64,000 bases of DNA from IMG/VR virus record IMGVR_UViG_2847060657_000007, positions 20,959 to 84,958 of that record. One strand, 5' to 3'. The notes beneath the pieces were generated by a model that was not told the DNA's origin, did not search any database, and saw only the letters and a list, made by a program, of their open reading frames with translations. Made by a program: the position numbers and the translations under genes. Source of the stretch: a virus (lineage: Duplodnaviria > Caudoviricetes). This document shows positions 18,603-41,669 of this stretch, in pieces. Numbering within the stretch: the stretch's first letter is position 1; every line of letters starts with the position of its first letter.

Positions 18603-19503
18603 TGTAAAATAAACCCCCGTTATTTACAGTATTAAGGTAAAATACTGCAAATGAACATACACAAAAACACAAGACTGCTTCCCCACCATAGGAAAGCCAT
18701 TTGAACTGCTTACCATAAGAACAAGCAATCAGTGACTTCACTGGCACTCGAGTACAAAGTATCAAGACCTACCATTTACAAGGTCTTAAAACTTGCTCGC
18801 ATTAAACTCCTTAAGCCTCAAACCAGTACCAATAATCGCTTTAAACAAGCCAAGTATGGCATTAAACGCTTGGCTAAGGTTGAAAAATCCATTCAAGACA
18901 AACTCAAAAGGCAAGCCAAGCGATACAACAAGTCCTATTTTGGTGAGATGGTTCATGTAGATGCCAAACGCTTACCTTTACTTAAAGGACAAAGTACAAA
19001 CAGTCCTAGAGAATATCTGTTTGTTGCCGTAGATGACTATTCTTGTGAACTGTATGCTGCCATACTGCCTGACAAAACAGCCTTTGGTGCAGCACAGTTT
19101 CTGGTAGAGCAAGTGATAGAACCTTGTCCTTACCAAATTGATGTTATTTACTCTGACAATGGCACTGAATTTAAAGGCACAACACAGCATGAATTTGTCA
19201 AAGTATGTTATGATAACCACATCAACCAAAAATTTACCAAAGTAGGCAGACCACAAACCAATGGCAAAGCTGAACAGGAGATACGAACATTGATGGAGCT
19301 TTGGCATCATCAACATGAGTTTGTCAGCAGTGAACATAGAAAGCAAGAATTAACCAGATTTCTTAATTTCTATAACACTGTTAGACCACATTCATCTTTA
19401 ACCAAAAAAGATGAGATTACAGGAAAAACTTTGACTTTTACGCCTTATGAATGGTTAGAGTTTTATTTTAAACAAAGTGTAAATAACGGGTGAGGTTTTT
19501 ACA
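18603..19503 (+). mobile_element. IS481-family element with inactivated transposase
   Basis: Imperfect 26-bp IRs TGTAAAATAAACCCCCGTTATTTACA / TGTAAAAACCTCACCCGTTATTTACA; ORF MNIHKNTRL from 18651 has an in-frame TGA at 18702-18704; DDE/rve motifs. Confidence 0.9.
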
Positions 19504-19601: not shown

Positions 19602-19633
19602 AAAAAGCCCAAACCTTTCGATTTGGACTTTTT
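19602..19633 (-). terminator. Intrinsic terminator downstream of the tRNA fragment
   Basis: Minus strand AAAAAGTCCAAA-loop-TTTGGGCTTTTT. Confidence 0.7.
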
Positions 19634-19639
19634 GAAATT

Positions 19640-19684
19640 TGGAGCGGGAAACGAGATTCGAACTCGCGACCCCAACCTTGGCAA
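19640..19684 (-). other. 3' half (45 bp) of tRNA-Gly(GCC): att-site scar
   Basis: Minus strand TTGCCAAGGTTGGGGTCGCGAGTTCGAATCTCGTTTCCCGCTCCA; no D arm or 5' acceptor strand upstream. Confidence 0.85.
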
Positions 19685-24900: not shown

Positions 24901-27552
24901 ATGTCTCAAATCAACCGCTCTGCTTTATTTGCCAAACTAAATACATCACTATATAAGAGCCTTGAAAGTGCTTTTATGTTTGCCAAGTTGCGTGAAAATA
25001 GGTATGTTGAACTCTCCCATTGGATATATCAAATATTACAAATGGACGATACGGATTTACGATTCATAGAGGGTCATTTTGAACTAAATCACGACTATCT
25101 AATAAGCGACATTGCAAACCACTTAAAAACCCTAAAAACAGGCTATGAACAGGTCAGTGACTTCTCTGATGACGTCATGACACTCATTGAAGAGTCATGG
25201 CTGTACGTCTCCATAAACTTTAATCAAACACGCATCACCACAGGTCATCTTATTTACACACTGTTAGAATCCAACCAGTTTAAACACCAACTTCTTAGAA
25301 TCAGTTCCGAATTTGGCAAAATCAATACTCAAAAGCTGTATGACGACTACAACCAAATATGCCAACATTCCATTGAAAAACCCACAGCTCAGGAAGTCTC
25401 CTTGTCACCCAGTGACCCAACGGGGCAATCTGCCTTGGCACGTTTTGGCACCAATCTTACCGAGCAGGCACGACAAGAGAAGTTAGACCCCGTTACAGGC
25501 AGGGATAACGAAATCCGCCAAATGGTGGATATACTCTCTCGCAAAAAGCAGAACAACCCATTATTGACTGGTGAGGCTGGTGTAGGAAAGACTGCTGTCG
25601 TTGAAGGTCTTGCTCTAAAAATTGCTCAAGGCGATGTGCCAAACCACCTAAGAGAAGTTGAAATCATCTTACTTGATATCGGTGCACTCAAGGCAGGAGC
25701 AAGTGTCTCTGGTGAGTTTGAAAATCGCCTAAAAGCAGTTATCAAAGAAGTCCACCAAAGTCCCAAGCCTATCATCTTGTTCATTGATGAGATTCATACA
25801 TTAGTGGGTGCTGGCGGTGCTGCAGGTACAGGCGATGCCGCCAATCTTTTAAAACCCGCTTTGGCAAGAGGCGAGCTTCGCACCATTGGTGCAACCACAT
25901 GGTCAGAATACAAAAAATATTTTGAAAAAGACCCCGCACTTACCCGAAGATTTCAAGTCATTCAAGTGCCAGAACCCAACCAAAAAGTGGCAACTGATAT
26001 GCTAAGGGGCTTGGTGGACAGACTAGAATCCCATCATCAGGTACTCATCTTAGAAGATGCCGTGCAAACTGCTGTCAAATTCTCAGCTCGCTATATTCCT
26101 GCACGACAATTGCCAGACAAAGCTATTAGCATTCTTGATACCGCTTGTGCTAGGGTTGCCGTCAGCTTAAACAGCACCCCCCTGTCTATCACCACCAAAG
26201 AAGAAAGCATAAAATCCATCGAACAGCAGATTCACCAGCTTCAAAAACAACAAGAATCAGGCTACCTAACCGATGGCGATGTCATTGCACAAAAACAGCA
26301 ACAAATCCAAGCCATACAGTCAGAGTTGGATGTTATCAATGCACAATATCAAGACCAAAAACAACTTGTCGAGGCACTTCATGCAATCAGAGCATCCATA
26401 ACCTCATCGGATGATGATAAACCAGAAGAAATAAAAGCCCTCAAGGCAGAGCAACAAGCACTTATCACAAAACTTCAGACCATACAAAAACAAGAGACAT
26501 TGGTTCATCCTGTGGTAGATTCTCATCTCATCGCTCAAATCATTGCTGAATGGACAGGCATTCCCATTGGAAAAATGATGGATGATGAAGTGCAAAAAAT
26601 CCTTCATTTATCAGAAACGCTCAACCAACGAATCATCGGTCAGCCTCATGCAACTGATATGATAGCCAAACGCATACAGACCGCCAGAGCCAATCTAGAC
26701 AACCCCAACAAACCGATTGGCGTCTTTATGCTAACAGGACCCTCTGGCGTGGGCAAAACCGAAACCGCCCTCGCACTGGCAGACATCATGTATGGCGGTG
26801 AACAAAACCTCATTACCATCAACATGAGTGAATACCAAGAACCTCATACCGTCTCCACGCTTAAAGGTGCCCCTCCAGGATATGTCGGCTATGGTGAAGG
26901 TGGCGTACTGACTGAAGCCGTTCGCAGACGTCCTTATAGTGTTGTCCTGCTAGATGAGATAGAAAAGGCTCATCCCGATGTTTATGAGATTTTCTTTCAG
27001 GTCTTTGATAAAGGATTTATGGAAGATGGCGAGGGTCGCTATATTGACTTCAAAAACACCATCATCATCCTAACCACCAATGTCGGCTCAGAGCTTACCC
27101 TAACTTTATGTCAAGACGAGCTTCTAAAACCCGATATAGAAGGACTGGCTACGGCATTAAGAGAGCCTCTATTGCAGACTTTTCCGGCGGCACTTTTGGG
27201 TAGAATCCAAAACATTCCCTACTACCCACTCAATCACGAGATGATGTCACACATCATCACCCTGCAACTAAACAAAGTCATCAAACGCATGCAGGATAAT
27301 CATAACATCACATTAAGCCATGATGATGCCGTCATCACCCTCATCGCCAACCGCTGTCAAGAAATAGAGTCAGGCGGTCGTATGATTGATGCCATCATCA
27401 CCAATCACATCCTGCCCATGATAAGTCATGAGATACTTTTATCTATCGGCAATCCTAGTCCCATAAGAAACATGACATTGACCGTTGTTGATAATGAATT
27501 TAAACTTACCATTGATAGACACACTCAACATGAAGACATCCCATGCCCCTAA
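24901..27552 (+). CDS. tssH: T6SS AAA+ ATPase ClpV/TssH
   Basis: [15 protein letters not shown]-terminus, two Walker A motifs ([16 protein letters not shown]), FPAALLGR. Confidence 0.95.
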
Positions 27553-28395
27553 CCCGTTACTACATCCTAGAAAACGACACCACCACAGCAGGCGGTATCG
27601 TCCAGACAACCACCAATCCCATTGTCTTTAATGTAGATGGCAAAAAGCAAAGCTGTATCGGCGATGATGTCTGGTGTTCTGCTTGTCAATCAATGGGCAA
27701 AATTGTACCAACAGGTCCAAGATTGTCTTTTTCTTTGGGTGGAGCAATGCCTGCTTTAAATGATGATTTGTGTCTATGCAAATGCACTCCACCACCAAAA
27801 CTTGTGCATTCACAGACAAGTTTTAAAGAGATTATTGATGATAATAGACTTGCCCAATATCGCCAAGCACAAGCACAGTATCGCCAAGCAAAATTACAAA
27901 ACAATCTAACCAGCACCAAGGCTAACGATAACTTGCCAAACTTTACCGTGCATTTTAGAAGACCTGATGATTATCAAGGGAGGTATGGGTTTGATTGGTT
28001 AAGAGATGAGTATATTTATCCTTTGGTTGAGGTTAATAGCAAAAAACAGCGATTATTTCAAGGGTTGGATATTAAAAACTTAATTGGCGAATATCGCAAA
28101 TTTAAAACGCAATCCATAAAAGAATTGGATAATATAGACAATCCAAACTATACCCCTACTTGGCTAACCCTATTTGCCCCGACCAATTCTGTTGGTGTTA
28201 GTCAAGTCTCATTAAAGTTGCGTATAGATTCAGATGAAACCAATCCGCAATCTTTAACCGATAATGGTATAGCCTTATCTTTTGAGTGTAGTCAAGGACT
28301 GCAGATAGCCACACCTACACTATCATTGGGTCAAGCTTTATCACAAATGACCAAACAACAAATCCATTTTGATGATACCATTCTTATTCAAGAAG
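27543..28395 (+). pseudogene. PAAR-domain effector truncated by IS30
   Basis: DTTTAGGIV...CSAC...PALNDDLCLCKCTPPP PAAR-like domain, then GRYGFDWLRDEYI; ORF stops inside the IS30 IR. Confidence 0.8.
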
Positions 28396-29464
28396 CTTGA
28401 ATTATCAAACCAACTGCAACACTTCATCAAAATAAACCTCATAAGGTGTTTTCCAGTTTAAACACTTTTTGGGTCTATGATTGGGTTCATTTACTTTACT
28501 GATAATATCGCTTTCATGCCACTTGCTTAAATCTTGATGCTTAGGGAAATATTCTCTAAGCAGTCCATTGGTATTTTCATTGCTTCCCCTATCCCAAGGG
28601 TGTCTTGGTGGGGGAAAGTAAAACTCTACATTTAACTGCTGACTGATTTTTTCATGATAAGCAAACTCTTTGCCTCTATCAGGGGTAATTGTATGGACTT
28701 TTACATCCTTTAATAAATCAATCATTGCAGTTTGTACATGTTCTGCCCTCTTGGCAGGTAATCTTCTGCACCACAGATAACGGCTTTTTCTATCTACTAA
28801 GGTGAGTAGACAATGACCACCAGAGATACCTAAGACAGTATCCACCTCTATGTCACCTGTCCGCTCTCTTAAATCAGCCATCTTTGGACGTTCTGATAAT
28901 TCATGACTGATCTTAATTTTACCACGCTTTTCATCATGAGTCTTAGCATGTCTTGTCTTACCTTTATGGCGTAGCTTACGACGTGCCAATCTGCCACCTT
29001 CATCAAACCATCCATGATAAATGGCTCGATAAATTGTATTGGCACTTATTTGGTGTTTTGTATTCTCAAGCCTAAGACGATTGCTGATTTGCTCTGGAGA
29101 CCACCTGTGACTCATAAACTTATCATGCACCAACTGATATAACTCTTTGTCATCTAATTTAAACTTAAGTTTGCATGCTTGACGTTTTTTATCATAGTTT
29201 ATCTGAGCCGTGTTAGCGCTATACGCTTGGTTTAACTTACAATTTCTTGATATTTCTCTTGAAATTGTTGAGCAAGAACGTCCTAACATGCTTGCGATTT
29301 TACTGGGCTTTATGCCTTGTGCAAGCATTAACATTATCTTTTCTCGTTCATTTATGCTAAGATGTTTGTAGGTGTTCATGGTTACTTTTTTATTTGTGTG
29401 GTAACAATATTATCAGTAATGATGAACATCTTTTCATTTGTTGCGGTTGGATTGTATGTTTAAG
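28396..29464 (-). mobile_element. IS30-family element, transposase apparently intact (28405-29379)
   Basis: IRs CTTGAATTATCAAACCAACTGCAACA / CTTAAACATACAATCCAACCGCAACA; HTH, ITPDRGKEF, RGSNENTNGLLREYFPK. Confidence 0.92.
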
Positions 29465-35294: not shown

Positions 35295-35451
35295 GATTGT
35301 GTTACTGCAAAATCAGTAGCCAGCCGTGAGAAGCTGAGTATTAACAACAGGCTAGCAAGCCGTATTTGTCATTATCGCAGTCTACAATGATTGCTTTATG
35401 TAATGATAAGCGGTTTTTTGTTTGCACCCCTTTTATACCTTTTCTTTTTAT

Positions 35452-35530
35452 GGTGGATAAGGGGCAAGGCGGGCTTATGCTCGGCTGGTGTCTGTTGTGC
35501 CAGTTTCTCACCCTTGTCCTTTATCCATCG
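35452..35530 (+). ncRNA. C4/CI-like phage antisense RNA
   Basis: 18-bp closing stem GGTGGATAAGGGGCAAGG/CCTTGTCCTTTATCCATC with two internal hairpins; TTCTCAC is complementary to the upstream hairpin loop CAGC-CGTGAGAA-GCTG (35321-35336). Confidence 0.7.
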
Positions 35531-35588
35531 CCCTATACGTGAGAAATATAGAGCGGTATTTTACGATACAACAGAAAAGGTAATCCCT

Positions 35589-36057: not shown

Positions 36058-36405
36058 ATGAGCAAAATCAATGCACAAGATGAACAGCAGTACGAAATGG
36101 TGATGGCAATCTCAGAATTTTTAAAAAATGAGAAGCTAGTCGCCAATGATTGTGATGGTGTGGCAATGCGATTGTATGAATGCCTGCAAAAGGTTTTTGG
36201 TGGTTGCAACATCTATTTTAAAAAAGGTGTTGTTGGGCAGGCGGACGAAGAAGGTCGGCAAATGCTGATAGACCAAGACAGAGGGCTTAGTATTCATCAA
36301 ATTGCCCAAAAATATCAAAAGACCTGTCAATCCGTCTATAAAAAACTCTCAAAGGCACGAGCAGAAAGACGCAAGCAAAATAATGAAAACTTTGGAGCTT
36401 TATAA
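36058..36405 (+). CDS. Mor/C-family transcription activator
   Basis: VFGGCNIYF and C-terminal HTH GLSIHQIAQKYQKTCQSVYKKL. Confidence 0.75.
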   Translation: MSKINAQDEQQYEMVMAISEFLKNEKLVANDCDGVAMRLYECLQKVFGGCNIYFKKGVVGQADEEGRQMLIDQDRGLSIHQIAQKYQKTCQSVYKKLSKARAERRKQNNENFGAL

Positions 36406-36416
36406 GGTGGCAAACA

Positions 36417-37127
36417 ATGAATAACTTAGAAGTAAAACGCTTTCAAATTTCAAGAACGGGCGTGCATACAGACAGTAACGGCAATGAACATACTTTTTCT
36501 GATACGCTATTTAATAAACTGGTAACACGATTTAATCAACTGGCAAATCATGGTAATCAACAAACACCCTTATATCTTGAACATCCCCAAAGCAAAGCTG
36601 ATAATGACCCAACACGCCATCAAAGCTATGGTTATGTGTCTAGCCTTGAATTGGATAATGGGCGATTGTATGCGGTGGCGTGGGTTAATCGTGAGCTTAT
36701 CAATTTGGTAAAAAGTGGGCAATATAAGGCGGTATCAGCTGGCTTTATGAAAGTGGGTGATGATTTGTGGCTAGACCATGTCGCTTTTGTCAAAAGACCT
36801 GCGGTAAAAGGCATGGAAGTGCTTAGTTTTTCAGAGCATTCTTTTGTGCAAAACTGTGTAACAGCATTGGTAAATACCCATAATTTTAATGCTGGCAATA
36901 CCATTCATGAAAATGCTTTGTCGTGGATGAATGCTTTTAATACTGATTATGAAACAGCAGTTATTTCGGTGATGCGTGAGCAAGCAAATACTGCTAATTT
37001 TTCAAAAAGAAACAGCAATAACCAATCCTATCAGTTGCACCAAAAAGCGTTAGCTTACCAAGCCCAATACGGCGTAAGTTATGAAGTGGCGGTGCGTGAA
37101 TGTTTAAAACAAGGGGCTACTCTATGA
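36417..37127 (+). CDS. Mu gpI-like prohead protease/scaffold homologue
   Basis: Aligns by eye with 53999-55150 (TG.HTDSNG, HP, SL..DNG.LYA, K.VSA.F, PA.KG.E). Confidence 0.75.
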   Translation: MNNLEVKRFQISRTGVHTDSNGNEHTFSDTLFNKLVTRFNQLANHGNQQTPLYLEHPQSKADNDPTRHQSYGYVSSLELDNGRLYAVAWVNRELINLVKSGQYKAVSAGFMKVGDDLWLDHVAFVKRPAVKGMEVLSFSEHSFVQNCVTALVNTHNFNAGNTIHENALSWMNAFNTDYETAVISVMREQANTANFSKRNSNNQSYQLHQKALAYQAQYGVSYEVAVRECLKQGATL

Positions 37128-37756: not shown

Positions 37757-37796
37757 AAAAAAACACCTTTAATGTAAAAAATTAAAGGTGTTTTTT
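37757..37796. terminator. Bidirectional terminator
   Basis: AAAAAAACACCTTTAAT-loop-ATTAAAGGTGTTTTTT between convergent genes. Confidence 0.8.
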
Positions 37797-37880: not shown

Positions 37881-39461
37881 TTATCGTGTTGCGTAACAAC
37901 AAAACGCTTCAATGACCTTAAAGACATTATCGCCAAATCCACCAACATTTAACACATCATTGCCATTTTTGGCTTGGGAAGAGGTATAAGGCTGTAAATC
38001 CACGCATATTAGCTTGGCATTAGGGCAACGCTTTTTTAAAATTCGCCATTCTTTCATCATTTGTGTGCCACGCCCAGACTGCTCGTCCGCCCACGATTCA
38101 TTGTCCGAAAAATAAATCATCACATCAATCTTTGCTTTTTGGCGATTTAATTCGGCAAGCGGTAAGGCGGTGTGTGTTCCGCCCCCGCCAAACTTGGCAA
38201 GCCGTTCGGCTAAGGCAAGCACATCAACGGCAGGCGGTGTTTGGGCGGTGTCCGCTTTGCCAAAGGCGGATTTTAGGCGTACACTAAAAGGTTTTTTGCC
38301 TGTGATTTGACTAATATTATCATTAAAATCAATCACTTGGTGCAAACGGGTATCAAAGGGCATAATCATCGCTGTGGGGTTGGCAACCTTCATCGCAGAC
38401 GCAAACAAACTTGCCACATCAATGCACCGCACCTGCGATGTCGCCCCACGCCGATAGCCCATTACGGGCGAGTGCATAGAGCCTGACACATCTACGCCGA
38501 TGGCGATTTGCCCGTCAAGGCGTGGCACATTGGCAAGGGCGTGGCTCATCGCCGTTTTTAGGGCGTTTTTGATGACGGCAGGAACATCATCGCCCAGAGC
38601 CTGCCAAGTGGCGTAAAGCTGATAGGGAAAGGCACGGGCGTGTTTGACCGCCTGCTCGTCCGCTAATTTATCCGCCAGCATTTGCGCCATACCGTCCACG
38701 CCAAACACGCCGTGACGGACAAAGGTGTTTAAATTCATTCGCACCATTTGCCACGAGCCTTGTTTGGCAAGGCCTGCCCAATGCTCCGTTGTCAAATCAA
38801 GCGACATCAGCCACTCAATGGGCAAGTCGGGCAAGGGCTGTTGGTTGTCCTTTTGAAAGTCAAGGAGCGAGCGAGCAAGGGGCGGTAAGTGATTGTAATT
38901 AAAGTCTTTTTGCAACGCCCATTTGATAAGGGCTTCGCTCTTGTCATCAAAAGGTTTTGGGTGGCTTAGGCGAATGACATCTCTTAGGGTGGGTTTATTG
39001 CCGATATTGGCGTTAATAAATTGTCTGTCGCTAGCGGTAAGTAACCACTCATTCACCAAATTTTTGGCAAAATTACCCAAACTTTTACGCCCAACCGCCC
39101 CGCCCCGCATTACCTGAACAAAGTTTCTAAGCTGTTTGCCATTATTGACAATGTCCTTAAAAATGGCTTTGGCAAAGGGCTGACCGTCCGCCTTAACGCA
39201 CAAAATCGCCAAAAGCACAACGGGCGTGTCTTTCATCAAGGCGTGCTGACGGGCGTATAGGGCAAGTTTTGCCAAAAATGCGTTGTCAATTTTGTGTGCC
39301 AAATCAATGACTTCGCCAATCTGCTCGCCCCCTGTGACATAAAAAGTCTGGTTAAAAGTCCCCGTACACACAAGCTGAGCAAGGGCTTGTTTGGGGCTTA
39401 ACTCGTACGCCTTGCCCCCTTGGTGGTTGGTGGTTTGGGGGTTAAAAATGTTGGTGTTCAT
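37881..39461 (-). CDS. rsr: Ro60/TROVE-vWA RNA-binding protein
   Basis: LAQL.CTGTFNQTFY, YARQ...MKDTP, RNFVQVMR.G.VGRKSLG, DVSGSM, SDNESW; GGAG RBS before ATG 39461. Confidence 0.9.
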   Translation of the reverse strand: MNTNIFNPQTTNHQGGKAYELSPKQALAQLVCTGTFNQTFYVTGGEQIGEVIDLAHKIDNAFLAKLALYARQHALMKDTPVVLLAILCVKADGQPFAKAIFKDIVNNGKQLRNFVQVMRGGAVGRKSLGNFAKNLVNEWLLTASDRQFINANIGNKPTLRDVIRLSHPKPFDDKSEALIKWALQKDFNYNHLPPLARSLLDFQKDNQQPLPDLPIEWLMSLDLTTEHWAGLAKQGSWQMVRMNLNTFVRHGVFGVDGMAQMLADKLADEQAVKHARAFPYQLYATWQALGDDVPAVIKNALKTAMSHALANVPRLDGQIAIGVDVSGSMHSPVMGYRRGATSQVRCIDVASLFASAMKVANPTAMIMPFDTRLHQVIDFNDNISQITGKKPFSVRLKSAFGKADTAQTPPAVDVLALAERLAKFGGGGTHTALPLAELNRQKAKIDVMIYFSDNESWADEQSGRGTQMMKEWRILKKRCPNAKLICVDLQPYTSSQAKNGNDVLNVGGFGDNVFKVIEAFCCYATR

Positions 39462-39505
39462 AACCAATCTCCATTTATGAAGTTATACAAAAAGATAGAA
39501 AAATT

Positions 39506-39737
39506 TGGTGGACACGACGGGATTCGAACCCGCATCTGTGCTGTTACTGCCATTTTTAGTCGTACAGCCGAGCAGTCTTATTGGAAACGCGCGCCAGTAG
39601 TAGACCATTTGCCATAGCCAGTACCTGCATCTGCAACCGTACCAAGACCCCCGCTTGCGAACAACACCCAGTTTTACCCAGACTACCCAAGACCCAATCG
39701 TTTTTGGTAGCGTCGCCCCCTGTATGACAGCGTGCCC
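39506..39737 (-). ncRNA. 232-nt tmRNA-like tRNA-mimic RNA upstream of rsr
   Basis: 5' GGGCACG pairs with 3' CGTGTCC-A-CCA (G3.U70, A73); T arm GCGGG-TTCGAAT-CCCGT; no anticodon arm. Confidence 0.75.
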
Positions 39738-39750
39738 GTATTTATCATTA

Positions 39751-39766
39751 TCCAAATCTTGTGCCA
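39751..39766 (-). promoter_or_regulatory. sigma54 (-24/-12) promoter
   Basis: TGGCAC-AAGAT-TTGGA (one mismatch to TTGCW); predicted start lies about 3 nt before the ncRNA 5' end; divergent bEBP rtcR. Confidence 0.7.
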
Positions 39767-39871
39767 ACTTGGGAAATTTTGGGAAAAATAGTTTTTAAGT
39801 AATTGATTTTTAATGGATTAAAATTTTAACATTGGAGAAATTTTAGTATTGGCTTGTAAAAATTTTGGGAA

Positions 39872-39921: not shown

Positions 39922-40080
39922 ATGGAAAATTTAGAAAATGATAAAATCACAACCCAAAATCAAGGGCGTTTTGATGATGTTTTTGGCATTTTAACCGCCA
40001 CAACAGGGGCGAGTGTTGAAGAAATGAACGAAGCCATTATTGAAAGTGCGTGTGAATTTAACAAAGATTTGGAAGATTAA
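39922..40080 (+). CDS. 52-aa small ORF resembling the C-terminal half of AbrB/VapB antitoxins
   Basis: Manual translation MENLENDKITTQNQGRFDDVFGILTATTGASVEEMNEAIIESACEFNKDLED; stop lies 2 nt before the rtcR ATG. Confidence 0.55.
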   Translation: MENLENDKITTQNQGRFDDVFGILTATTGASVEEMNEAIIESACEFNKDLED

Positions 40081-40082
40081 TA

Positions 40083-41669
40083 ATGAAAAAATCGGTCATG
40101 CTTGGCTTTTTGGGTACGGTGCTGGACGATGGATTTAGCCAAAGACGGCACGCCAAATGGCGACCGAATGTCAATGTGCATAGGGTAATGGCGTTTGACC
40201 GTGTGGAGCTGTTTATTTCGCCAAAATATCTGGCACTTGCCGAGCAAGTGGTGGCGGACATTAAGGAGATTCGCCCAGAAATCACGGTCAATTTGGTGGA
40301 TATACCCCTTGACAATCCGTGGGATTTTGGCGAAGTGTATGAAAAATTAGCAAGTTGGGCGGACAGCTATCCTTTTGATATTGAACAAGAAAATTATTTT
40401 ACCCACATTACCACAGGCACGCACGTTGCCCAGATTTGCCTGTTTTTATTGGTGGAAAGCCGCCAAATTCCAAGCCTACTTTTGCAGACCGCTCCGCCCA
40501 AAGACAGCCCTTGCCAAGTGGAGACGATTGATTTGGATTTGGCTCGTTATGATGCCCTAGCCAGTCGCCTAAGCAAGGTCAAGGACGATGCGGTGCGGTT
40601 TTTGAAAACCGACATTGCCACCAAAAACCCCACCTTTAACGCCCTAATCGGGCAAATTGAACAAGTGGCGATGGGTTCAAAGTCGCCCATGCTGATTATG
40701 GGGGCGACTGGGGCGGGCAAATCGCAACTGGCACGGCGAATTTATGAGCTTAAAAAGGCTCGGCATTTGGTGGCGGGGCGGTTTGTGGAAGTCAATTGTG
40801 CAACTTTGCGGGGCGATATGGCGTATTCGGCTCTGTTTGGGCATAAAAAAGGGGCGTTTACGGGGGCGATGACGGCACGGGACGGCTATCTTTTGACCGC
40901 TCATCAGGGCGTGCTGTTTTTGGACGAGATTGGCGAGCTTGGGGCGGACGAACAGGCGATGCTTTTGACTGCGTTGGAAGACAAACGCTTTTATCCGATG
41001 GGATCGGATACGCCTGTACACAGCGATTTTTGGCTCATTGCAGGGACAAATAAGGATTTGAAAGCGTGTGTGCGGGCGGGAACATTTCGGGAAGATTTGT
41101 ACGCCCGTATCAATGTTTGGCAATACACCCTGCCCGCCCTAAAAAACCGCAAGGAAGACATCGCCCCCAACATCGCCTATCAGCTTGACATTGCAGGCTT
41201 TGAGCTTGGGCGGAAAGTGCGGTTTGGCAAGGAGGCGTATGAGCGGTATTTGGCGTTTTGTATGAGTGATGGGGCGGTTTGGCGGGGCAATTTTCGGGAT
41301 TTATCGGCGAGTATTTTACGCCTTGCGACTTTGGCAAATGATGGCAAAATCAATGAAAAATTGGTTAATGATGAAATTGGGCGTTTAAAAGAATTATGGG
41401 CGGACGATGATAATCAACTTGACAAAAAGTCCAATATTAATATTAACCCCGAATTGTTAAATAAAATCAATGCCCAACATTTAGATGAATTTGATAAAAT
41501 GCAATTATTAAATGTCATTAAACTTTGCCAATCCCACCCCACGATGGCAAGTGCAGGACGGGCATTGTTTAATCATTCACGGCTGGATAAGGCAAGTGGT
41601 AATGATAGCGATAGATTAAGGAAATATTTGAGGAAGTTTGGGGTGAGTTGGGGGGAGATTAAGGGGTAA
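40083..41669 (+). CDS. rtcR: RNA repair transcriptional activator RtcR (CARF-AAA+ sigma54 bEBP-HTH)
   Basis: GFLGTVLD...WRPNV, HITTGTHVAQICLFLL, GATGAGKS, GAFTGA, NDSDRLRKYL. Confidence 0.95.
   Translation: MKKSVMLGFLGTVLDDGFSQRRHAKWRPNVNVHRVMAFDRVELFISPKYLALAEQVVADIKEIRPEITVNLVDIPLDNPWDFGEVYEKLASWADSYPFDIEQENYFTHITTGTHVAQICLFLLVESRQIPSLLLQTAPPKDSPCQVETIDLDLARYDALASRLSKVKDDAVRFLKTDIATKNPTFNALIGQIEQVAMGSKSPMLIMGATGAGKSQLARRIYELKKARHLVAGRFVEVNCATLRGDMAYSALFGHKKGAFTGAMTARDGYLLTAHQGVLFLDEIGELGADEQAMLLTALEDKRFYPMGSDTPVHSDFWLIAGTNKDLKACVRAGTFREDLYARINVWQYTLPALKNRKEDIAPNIAYQLDIAGFELGRKVRFGKEAYERYLAFCMSDGAVWRGNFRDLSASILRLATLANDGKINEKLVNDEIGRLKELWADDDNQLDKKSNININPELLNKINAQHLDEFDKMQLLNVIKLCQSHPTMASAGRALFNHSRLDKASGNDSDRLRKYLRKFGVSWGEIKG

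Follow-up and report, generated by a model that had tools for sequence, protein, structure and literature searches.

A linear tRNA-like RNA of 232 nt with an encoded CCA end, conserved within RtcR-type RNA-repair operons

The substrates of the bacterial Rtc/Ro60 operons and the role of the tRNA-like RNAs that these operons encode are still being worked out. Of tmRNA-like or tRNA-like RNAs in rtc operons, the literature searched describes two, YrlA and b7a-tRNA. YrlA (Rfam RF02553), which belongs to rsr-yrlBA-rtcBA operons and adjoins Ro60 and RtcB under the control of RtcR, is a tRNA mimic of ~114 nt with D and T arms; it is circularly permuted, with its acceptor-like stem closed by a loop and its ends forming the Ro-binding stem. 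In M. smegmatis, YrlA is cleaved by RNase P in vivo and CCA is then added (PMC4201824). b7a-tRNA was predicted by Burroughs & Aravind (2016) as a tRNA-like RNA beside a Band-7 gene and RtcB, occasionally with Rsr, and is summarised in bioRxiv 10.1101/312249 as 'strongly resembling an authentic tRNA'; the same source has tRNA-like RNAs predicted to be cofactors of Ro60 and Band-7 repair modules. The RNA described here bears on both questions. It is encoded in the window, by which we mean the whole stretch of 64,000 nt of DNA that was analysed, taken from an 85-kb record of provirus class, and its locus is composed of the following elements.

39506..39737, minus strand: the whole gene of the tRNA-like RNA, from G1 to the equivalent of A76 (232 nt, supported by the matches of covariance model R1 and by covariation)
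39751..39766, minus strand: sigma-54 promoter, with the -24 element TGGCAC (39766-39761), N5 and the -12 element TTGGA (39755-39751)
37881..39461, minus strand: rsr, the Ro60 orthologue (526 aa from the ATG at 39461; Pfam vWA_Ro60 and TROVE)
37757..37796, bidirectional: intrinsic terminator that closes the RNA-rsr unit (A run, 10-bp hairpin, T run)
40083..41669, plus strand: rtcR, the divergent sigma-54 activator with an RtcR/CARF-type N-terminal domain (Pfam RtcR 2e-61, Sigma54_activat 1e-48)

Counted from the GG of the -24 element, transcription is predicted to start at ~39740, and G1 of the RNA, at 39737, follows about 3 nt later, in agreement with the original prediction. Sigma-54 control linked to RtcR had also been proposed, and both the TGGCAC-N5-TTGGA box and the divergent rtcR gene point to it. 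A TGGCAY-N5-T(T/C)G(G/C) box is likewise located 28-31 nt upstream of G1 in three of the other loci compared in this study (L002, L035 and L037), and a TGGCAC-N5-TTGA box occupies the equivalent place in two more (L109 and L110). The rsr gene starts 44 nt downstream of the CCA of the RNA, and no terminator could be read between this CCA and the ribosome-binding site of rsr. As judged from this arrangement, rsr is co-transcribed downstream of the RNA, and the sigma-54 promoter serves both. The window locus represents, among the loci compared, the minimal layout of promoter, RNA, rsr and terminator. The locus is present on six complete chromosomes of 2.7-2.9 Mb, which indicates that it is chromosomal and stable despite the provirus class of the source record; in six complete genomes rsr is called in its 526-aa form, and the relatives of Rsr, compared as sequences, place the host in the Moraxellaceae.

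Several further features of the window were recorded. A 52-aa ORF (39922-40080, plus strand) stops 2 nt upstream of the start codon of rtcR and is among the called genes of six complete genomes (L099-L104, 6382-6540). Its product, which Pfam does not match, may be a small partner that is co-translated with RtcR. A 94-aa ORF that overlaps the RNA (39483-39767, minus strand) was rejected as a gene because any frame is open through the RNA in only ten of 38 homologues. A C4 antisense RNA (35446-35535, plus strand; Rfam RF01695, 59 bits versus a threshold of 45) adjoins the gene for a Mor-family activator (36058-36405) and a Mu-like protease/scaffold-like gene (36417-37127), and this stretch, immediately next to the rsr terminator, has the look of a phage remnant. 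At ~19620-19675 (minus strand) the window holds the 3' portion of a tRNA, in which a T arm, GTCGCGAGTTCGAATCTCG, is followed by TTCCCGC-T-CCA and then by a terminator; ARAGORN reports no whole tRNA at this position, the window contains no second copy, an rve-family transposase gene (18732-19493) adjoins it, and it may be the remnant of an att site. At 24901-28400 (plus strand), flanked by IS transposase genes (28405-29379), are genes for a double AAA+ ATPase of the ClpB/ClpV type (883 aa) and for a protein with a PAAR motif; the two could be type VI secretion cargo within the provirus stretch of the record.

Read on the minus strand, the RNA has the tRNA-like ends that had been attributed to it, namely the 7-bp stem with G3.U70, the A73-CCA end and the T arm. 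Comparison with its homologues gives the following fold.

39731..39737, minus strand: 5' strand of the acceptor stem, GGGCACG, with G3 at 39735; seven of seven positions are paired in all sequences
39506..39516, minus strand: 3' strand of the acceptor stem, CGUGUCC (39516-39510), with U70 at 39513, followed by A73 and the encoded CCA (39509-39506)
39711..39729, minus strand: D arm, with a covarying 4-bp stem UGUC/GACG and a loop with a conserved GG
39683..39710, minus strand: hairpin H3, with a covarying 5-bp stem and an 18-nt loop that begins AAAAACG
39668..39681, minus strand: hairpin H5, with a 4-bp stem and a GUAAAA loop; compensatory changes in three of four pairs
39660..39667 (5' strand) and 39538..39545 (3' strand), minus strand: helix H6 of 8 bp; compensatory changes in seven of eight pairs
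39546..39653, minus strand: conserved core domain within H6, made up of H7-H11 (39569-39653) and hairpin H12 (39546-39568)
39517..39533, minus strand: T arm, GCGGG-UUCGAAU-CCCGU, the only part matched by the Rfam tmRNA models

H6 occupies the place of the anticodon stem, and its 3' strand is followed by a linker of 4 nt and then by the T arm, which reproduces the geometry of an anticodon stem and a variable loop. Some 175 nt separate the D arm from the T arm, and the core of ~120 nt is conserved; within it, H7-H11 form a long irregular arm in which compensatory changes are seen in eight of the 11 pairs of H7, while H10 and H11 are nearly invariant, and H12 shows such changes in four of its seven pairs. 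The second pair of the D stem (position 11) changes from UA to AU or GC with the pairing kept, and the stem as a whole changes from UGUC/GACG to UGAC/GUCA in one homologue and to GGC/GCC in most others. The CGAC that had been taken as a sign of tmRNA is actually the 3' strand of this covarying stem. The loop of H3 (AAAYG) could pair with a CGUUU of the core (~39582-39586) in all sequences, one of the pairs appearing as UG, CG or GU, and is a weak candidate for a pseudoknot.

The support for this fold is comparative, because the single-sequence minimum free-energy structure retains the acceptor and T stems but does not exceed shuffled sequences in stability (z = +0.55), and a lone sequence thus proves nothing. 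An alignment of three sequences gave 71 pairs, 16 of them compensatory. When 38 distinct sequences were aligned, 95.3% of the pair cells were standard and 33 of the 71 pairs had changed on both sides; the pairing figures for 48 distinct sequences were similar, with double changes in 31-33 pairs across the two sets. The observed values were reached in none of 500 shuffles, and only 36-52% of the cells remained paired when the partner was slid by 1-3 columns. Compensatory changes are found in every helix, and the terminal stem on which the original prediction turned is included, since its pairs 5:68 (AU/GC 18/18) and 6:67 (CG/UA) covary. The other acceptor pairs (G1-C72, G2-C71, G3.U70, C4-G69 and G7-C66) are invariant in the 38 distinct sequences. 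Position 3:70 is G.U in all 38 and never G-C, whereas the first pair of the T stem alternates between GU and GC (19/18); elsewhere, then, the RNA tolerates a single-step change from G.U to G-C that is never seen at 3:70. GUCCACCA is nearly invariant across the family, and nearly all copies encode the CCA; the exceptions at this end are L035 (ACUA) and L065 (UCCA). Conservation is bounded exactly by G1 and the CCA, and the flanks diverge: the element upstream of G1 is the promoter, 2-6 nt away, in copies of the Moraxellaceae type and a stop codon, 20-40 nt away, in those of the Burkholderiales type. Such bounds would be expected for an RNA that is excised by tRNA-processing enzymes, and we infer that this RNA is processed in this way. 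Taken together, the comparative data strongly support a real, structured RNA of 232 nt.

About 60 homologues were found, in Moraxellaceae and Burkholderiales, and model R1 scores ~60 loci at 159-269 bits. They are 229-234 nt in length, except for that of L112, which has an insertion of ~33 nt in a terminal loop. The RNA is located at the equivalent position in an rsr locus from an Acinetobacter metagenome-assembled genome (L002), and in two metagenomic loci (L035 and L037) it follows rsr and an array of YrlA-like RNAs and has its own sigma-54 promoter; in L035 it is followed in turn by a gene for a kinase and an Rnl1-type ligase. Scanning of metagenome contigs with R1 and a pattern yielded 52 further copies with a GC content of 0.60-0.65, 151 sampled Moraxellaceae genomes yielded four more, and one was found on a Burkholderiales replicon (Eleftheria terrae). 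The GC-rich copies are assigned to Burkholderiales by the names carried by relatives of a neighbouring protein, for example Polaromonas. Elsewhere the searches were negative: a search for close relatives with the Rsr protein alone returned nothing in genome or viral contigs, blastn gave no matches in the phage collection, the window copy had none in the plasmid collection, and the RNA was missing upstream of rsr in 33 loci of greater distance. The exact pattern was not found in viral contigs, in 400 genomes sampled evenly across the class, the centre genome (G001) apart, or in the 20 genomes of one Moraxella-named genus, and the family is therefore patchy in its distribution.

ARAGORN reports neither a tRNA nor a tmRNA in the window, and at the gathering threshold Rfam 15 places no family at the position of the RNA in the window and none that matches the RNA in 13 homologous loci; the Infernal and ARAGORN searches that had been suggested thus gave no confident match to tmRNA, YrlA, tRNA or any other Rfam family. 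When E values of up to 10 were admitted, the Rfam matches were fragments of the T arm only, with tmRNA models at 12-19 bits. A plain tRNA (RF00005) was rejected, as neither ARAGORN nor the Rfam tRNA model at E up to 10 gave a match, and no intron or self-cleaving ribozyme of Rfam was matched at the RNA. YrlA was also rejected: model RF02553 at E up to 10 has no match in the window RNA, although it does detect YrlA in L004, L005, L033, L046 and L068, and the RNA has free ends. The linear topology of the tmRNA type, distinct from the circular permutation of YrlA, is thus as originally described.

The operon context across loci is more varied than the window suggests. The RNA is always found within RtcR-type RNA-repair operons, and the neighbours in 56 loci are RtcB (45), Band-7/SPFH (31), RtcR (30), RtcA (19) and Rsr (15). 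The usual order is a divergent rtcR, Band-7 or Rsr, the RNA, an optional protein of two kinds, rtcB and rtcA; alternative layouts are rtcB-RNA-rtcA (L040, L111 and L112) and rtcR facing a sigma-54 promoter, the RNA and a kinase/Rnl1-type ligase (L035, L109 and L110), the last two of these loci being without Rsr. The RNA is not specific to Ro60, since Band-7 and kinase/ligase loci carry it too. The proposal that it is a partner of Ro60 is accordingly too narrow, as Band-7 accompanies it in 31 of the 56 loci and Ro60 in 15, and two loci have no Ro60. A stricter version, in which the RNA replaces the Y RNA in the window genome and its single-stranded ACCA end or a helix is bound by the Ro60 ring, is distinctly unlikely. 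It would explain an operon made up of the RNA and rsr alone, in a window in which neither YrlA (Rfam) nor any further T-arm-bearing RNA was found near rsr. Against this, YrlA is often present as well where Rsr is present (L046 and L068), and the RNA coexists with YrlA or YrlA-like RNAs beside Rsr in these loci and in L002, L035 and L037; it is also found without any Rsr, and the window copy lacks the Ro-binding motif GNCGAAN0-1G, which only ten of 38 homologues contain.

The same variety of neighbours bears on whether the RNA acts in cis, as tRNA-shaped 'punctuation' at which RNase P and RNase E would divide the cistrons and which would set the level of the downstream mRNA, here that of rsr. 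Its constant co-transcription with protein genes is what such an element would require, as is its spacing, with 44 nt and no terminator before rsr in the window and 20-40 nt to the flanking genes elsewhere. However, a processing or stability element would need neither a covarying core of ~120 nt nor an invariant G3.U70 nor an encoded CCA, and the sequence of the RNA is kept while the gene downstream varies (rsr, rtcB, rtcA, kinase-ligase, X12 and X20), so that we regard this explanation as very unlikely. What is common to all of the layouts is control by RtcR and not any one effector protein, and this would suit an RNA that binds the CARF domain of RtcR as a feedback ligand or bait and tunes induction, whether as the intact molecule or after a ribotoxin has nicked it and left a 2',3'-cyclic phosphate. 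Nicked tRNAs or tRNA halves with a terminal cyclic phosphate are reported to elicit a response from RtcR (PMC7790460, PMC10159003), which favours such a ligand; on the other hand, a simple mimic of a tRNA half would have no use for the large conserved core, and RtcR is found in only 30 of the 56 loci, although many flanks are incomplete. A ligand of RtcR is an improbable explanation on balance.

Other features of these operons deserve mention. Proteins of ~250 aa without a Pfam domain alternate between the RNA and rtcB (L073:8656-9456, minus strand; L072:5558-6298, plus strand), and the two proteins of this slot, X12 and X20, are mutually unrelated; the protein at L073:8656-9456 has ~97 clusters of relatives, none of them named and some labelled Polaromonas. 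In L071, ten tRNA genes form a tight array (30-1995) directly upstream of the Band-7-RNA-X-RtcB operon, which resembles a phage-type tRNA cluster adjoining a repair module. In one Burkholderiales locus, rtcR is immediately followed by a bacterial RNase P RNA gene (L072:1252-1690, minus strand; RF00010, 194 bits), which may be a coincidence. Downstream of rsr in Moraxellaceae (L002:2840-3290, L035:4760-5270 and L037:2030-2400), YrlA-like RNAs with a T arm form arrays of three or four and score under the Rfam threshold for YrlA; the array of L035 seems to have its own sigma-70-type promoter after the rsr terminator. In Band-7-type rtc operons, a sigma-54 promoter (TGGCAC-GGCGC-CTGCA) comes first and is followed by a leader of ~560 nt (L042:2671-3246; also L073, L072 and L079), in which a T-arm hairpin is accompanied by a tRNA-Asn(GUU)-like module of ~77 nt without CCA; in L042 this module (2885-2961; Rfam tRNA, 46 bits) is upstream of the Band-7 gene. 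Band-7 loci thus carry two RNA elements, the leader of ~560 nt upstream of the Band-7 gene and the 232-nt RNA downstream of it.

The resemblance to tmRNA had led to the proposal of a second tmRNA with a tag frame at 39658-39578. In a miniature tmRNA of this kind the RNA would be charged with alanine, enter stalled ribosomes and have the frame (...TGARFQ and a stop) translated as a degradation tag. The topology of the tmRNA type with G3.U70, A73 and CCA agrees with this, the frame is open and ends in a stop in the window copy, and ARAGORN labels six of 52 homologues 'tmRNA' using the same frame. The copies so labelled are L073:9474-9704, L046:797-1021, L090, L093, L068 and L058, with tags such as AGSDDGSATGARFQPSAGPQA followed by a stop, and annotation based on ARAGORN will consequently mislabel members of this RNA family at times. 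The frame, however, is not conserved, and for this reason the proposal was rejected. In 25 of the 48 distinct sequences it has no stop before the 3' end and in the others the position of the stop varies; the stop triplets that are conserved in the homologue alignment delimit no common ORF, and in L035 and L037 the frame is shifted by an insertion of 1 nt after the proposed resume codon. The frame falls inside the core domain, and its conserved stretch lies among covarying helices; the 'peptide' AGAGSDDGS-TGARFQ is what results when H10 and H11 are translated, and subfamilies differ at all codon positions with no bias towards the third. At the place of the open loop that tmRNA offers to SmpB, this RNA has a covarying D stem, the peptide does not end in an ALAA-like sequence, and the Rfam tmRNA model (RF00023) gives 12.4 bits versus a threshold of 47, from the T arm only. 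A tagging tmRNA is effectively excluded by these comparisons, and the miniature tmRNA is an extremely improbable reading of the RNA.

A ribosomal function without tagging has more in its favour but is still unlikely. Here the RNA would be a non-coding, alanine-charged probe of the A site, delivered by EF-Tu to ribosomes that are stalled or damaged by nucleases, where it would recruit or license repair by RtcB, Ro60, Band-7 or the kinase-ligase; an RNA would then do what PrfH does in RtcB2-PrfH systems. The invariance of the alanine determinants and the CCA and the linkage to RtcB in 45 of 56 loci are consistent with such a probe, and so are precedents in the literature: RtcB acts on ribosomal RNA and tmRNA (PMC9650030), and PrfH-RtcB2 rescues and repairs damaged ribosomes (PMC9650030; PMC9304027). 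No SmpB-like or release-factor-like gene accompanies the RNA, however, and X12 and X20, the proteins beside it, offer neither a Pfam domain nor a mutual relationship. If the RNA were such a probe, it would be a damage-induced, non-coding functional relative of tmRNA. Charging with alanine by AlaRS is itself plausible, given that G3.U70 in a helix of 7 bp and A73-CCA are the determinants of alanine identity and that G3.U70 is invariant (38/38). This invariance alone is no proof of recognition by AlaRS because other G.U pairs of the core are also invariant, and position 4:69 is C-G in the RNA versus G-C in tRNA-Ala.

The readings as tRNA mimic, ribosome probe, RtcR ligand and processing signal are all compatible with the context data. 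The one that we favour, with slightly better than even confidence, is that the RNA is a tRNA mimic which is matured as a tRNA and acts in trans within the RNA repair or surveillance controlled by RtcR. According to this model, it is a stand-alone, non-coding RNA of ~232 nt, whose ends fold as the upper half of a tRNA and in which two small hairpins and a core of ~120 nt, closed by a helix of 8 bp, replace the anticodon arm. It would be transcribed only when RtcR activates the sigma-54 promoter, and the tRNA maturation machinery would then cut it from the RNA-rsr transcript, with RNase P acting at G1 and trimming of the 3' side to the CCA. The mature molecule would serve in trans as the RNA component of RtcR-controlled repair or surveillance modules, in a role akin to that of Y RNA/YrlA for Ro60 and to that predicted for b7a-tRNA with Band-7 proteins, and the mimicry would bring the proteins of the module (Ro60 here; Band-7, RtcB or the kinase-ligase elsewhere) to the machinery that handles tRNAs or to damaged RNAs of translation. 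Charging with alanine would protect the 3' end or permit binding of EF-Tu or access to the ribosome. The ACUA end of the L035 homologue counts against this model. For the window, the description as a repair cofactor is drawn by analogy with the other loci because neither the operon nor the 85-kb record contains a ligase or cyclase. Across the loci, the RNA moves among scaffolds (Ro60 and Band-7) and ligases (RtcB and Rnl1-type), which suggests that it is a core, exchangeable part of the repair system.

In conclusion, the RNA shows the D-arm and T-arm mimicry and the placement in Ro60/Band-7/RtcB operons under RtcR that characterize the tRNA-like RNAs of RNA-repair operons, and on present comparisons it is best read as an RNA of the same kind as YrlA and b7a-tRNA, although its form is linear and ~120 nt of it make up a conserved core. 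The family is undescribed in Rfam 15 and in the literature searched, with b7a-tRNA compared through its summary in bioRxiv 10.1101/312249. With tmRNA (SsrA) it shares the linear topology, the free ends, the 7-bp acceptor stem with G3.U70, A73 and CCA, the canonical T arm and a long helix that replaces the anticodon stem and encloses extra structure; it differs in its length (232 versus ~350 nt), in its covarying D stem, in the lack of a conserved frame or stop, in having at most one weak candidate for a pseudoknot where tmRNA has four, and in being encoded inside RtcR operons, whereas tmRNA is the product of a housekeeping gene. With b7a-tRNA, so far as that summary extends, it shares a predicted tRNA-like nature and the same distribution, beside a Band-7 gene and RtcB and occasionally Rsr; the close resemblance to an authentic tRNA fits the tRNA-Asn-like module of the Band-7 leader (L042:2885-2961) better, and this module is probably the published b7a-tRNA, the 232-nt RNA being a less likely candidate. 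With YrlA it shares the tRNA mimicry, both arms and the neighbourhood of Ro60 and RtcB under RtcR, and with YrlA of M. smegmatis also the 7-bp acceptor stem. In that RNA, however, a free CCA end arises by cutting of a closed stem, whereas here the ends and the CCA are encoded and the acceptor stem bears alanine identity elements; the GNCGAA motif of YrlA is missing from the window copy. As a well-defined addition to the tRNA-like RNAs of Rtc/Ro60 operons, the family differs from YrlA in that its ends are genuine tRNA ends, its CCA is encoded and its alanine identity elements do not vary.
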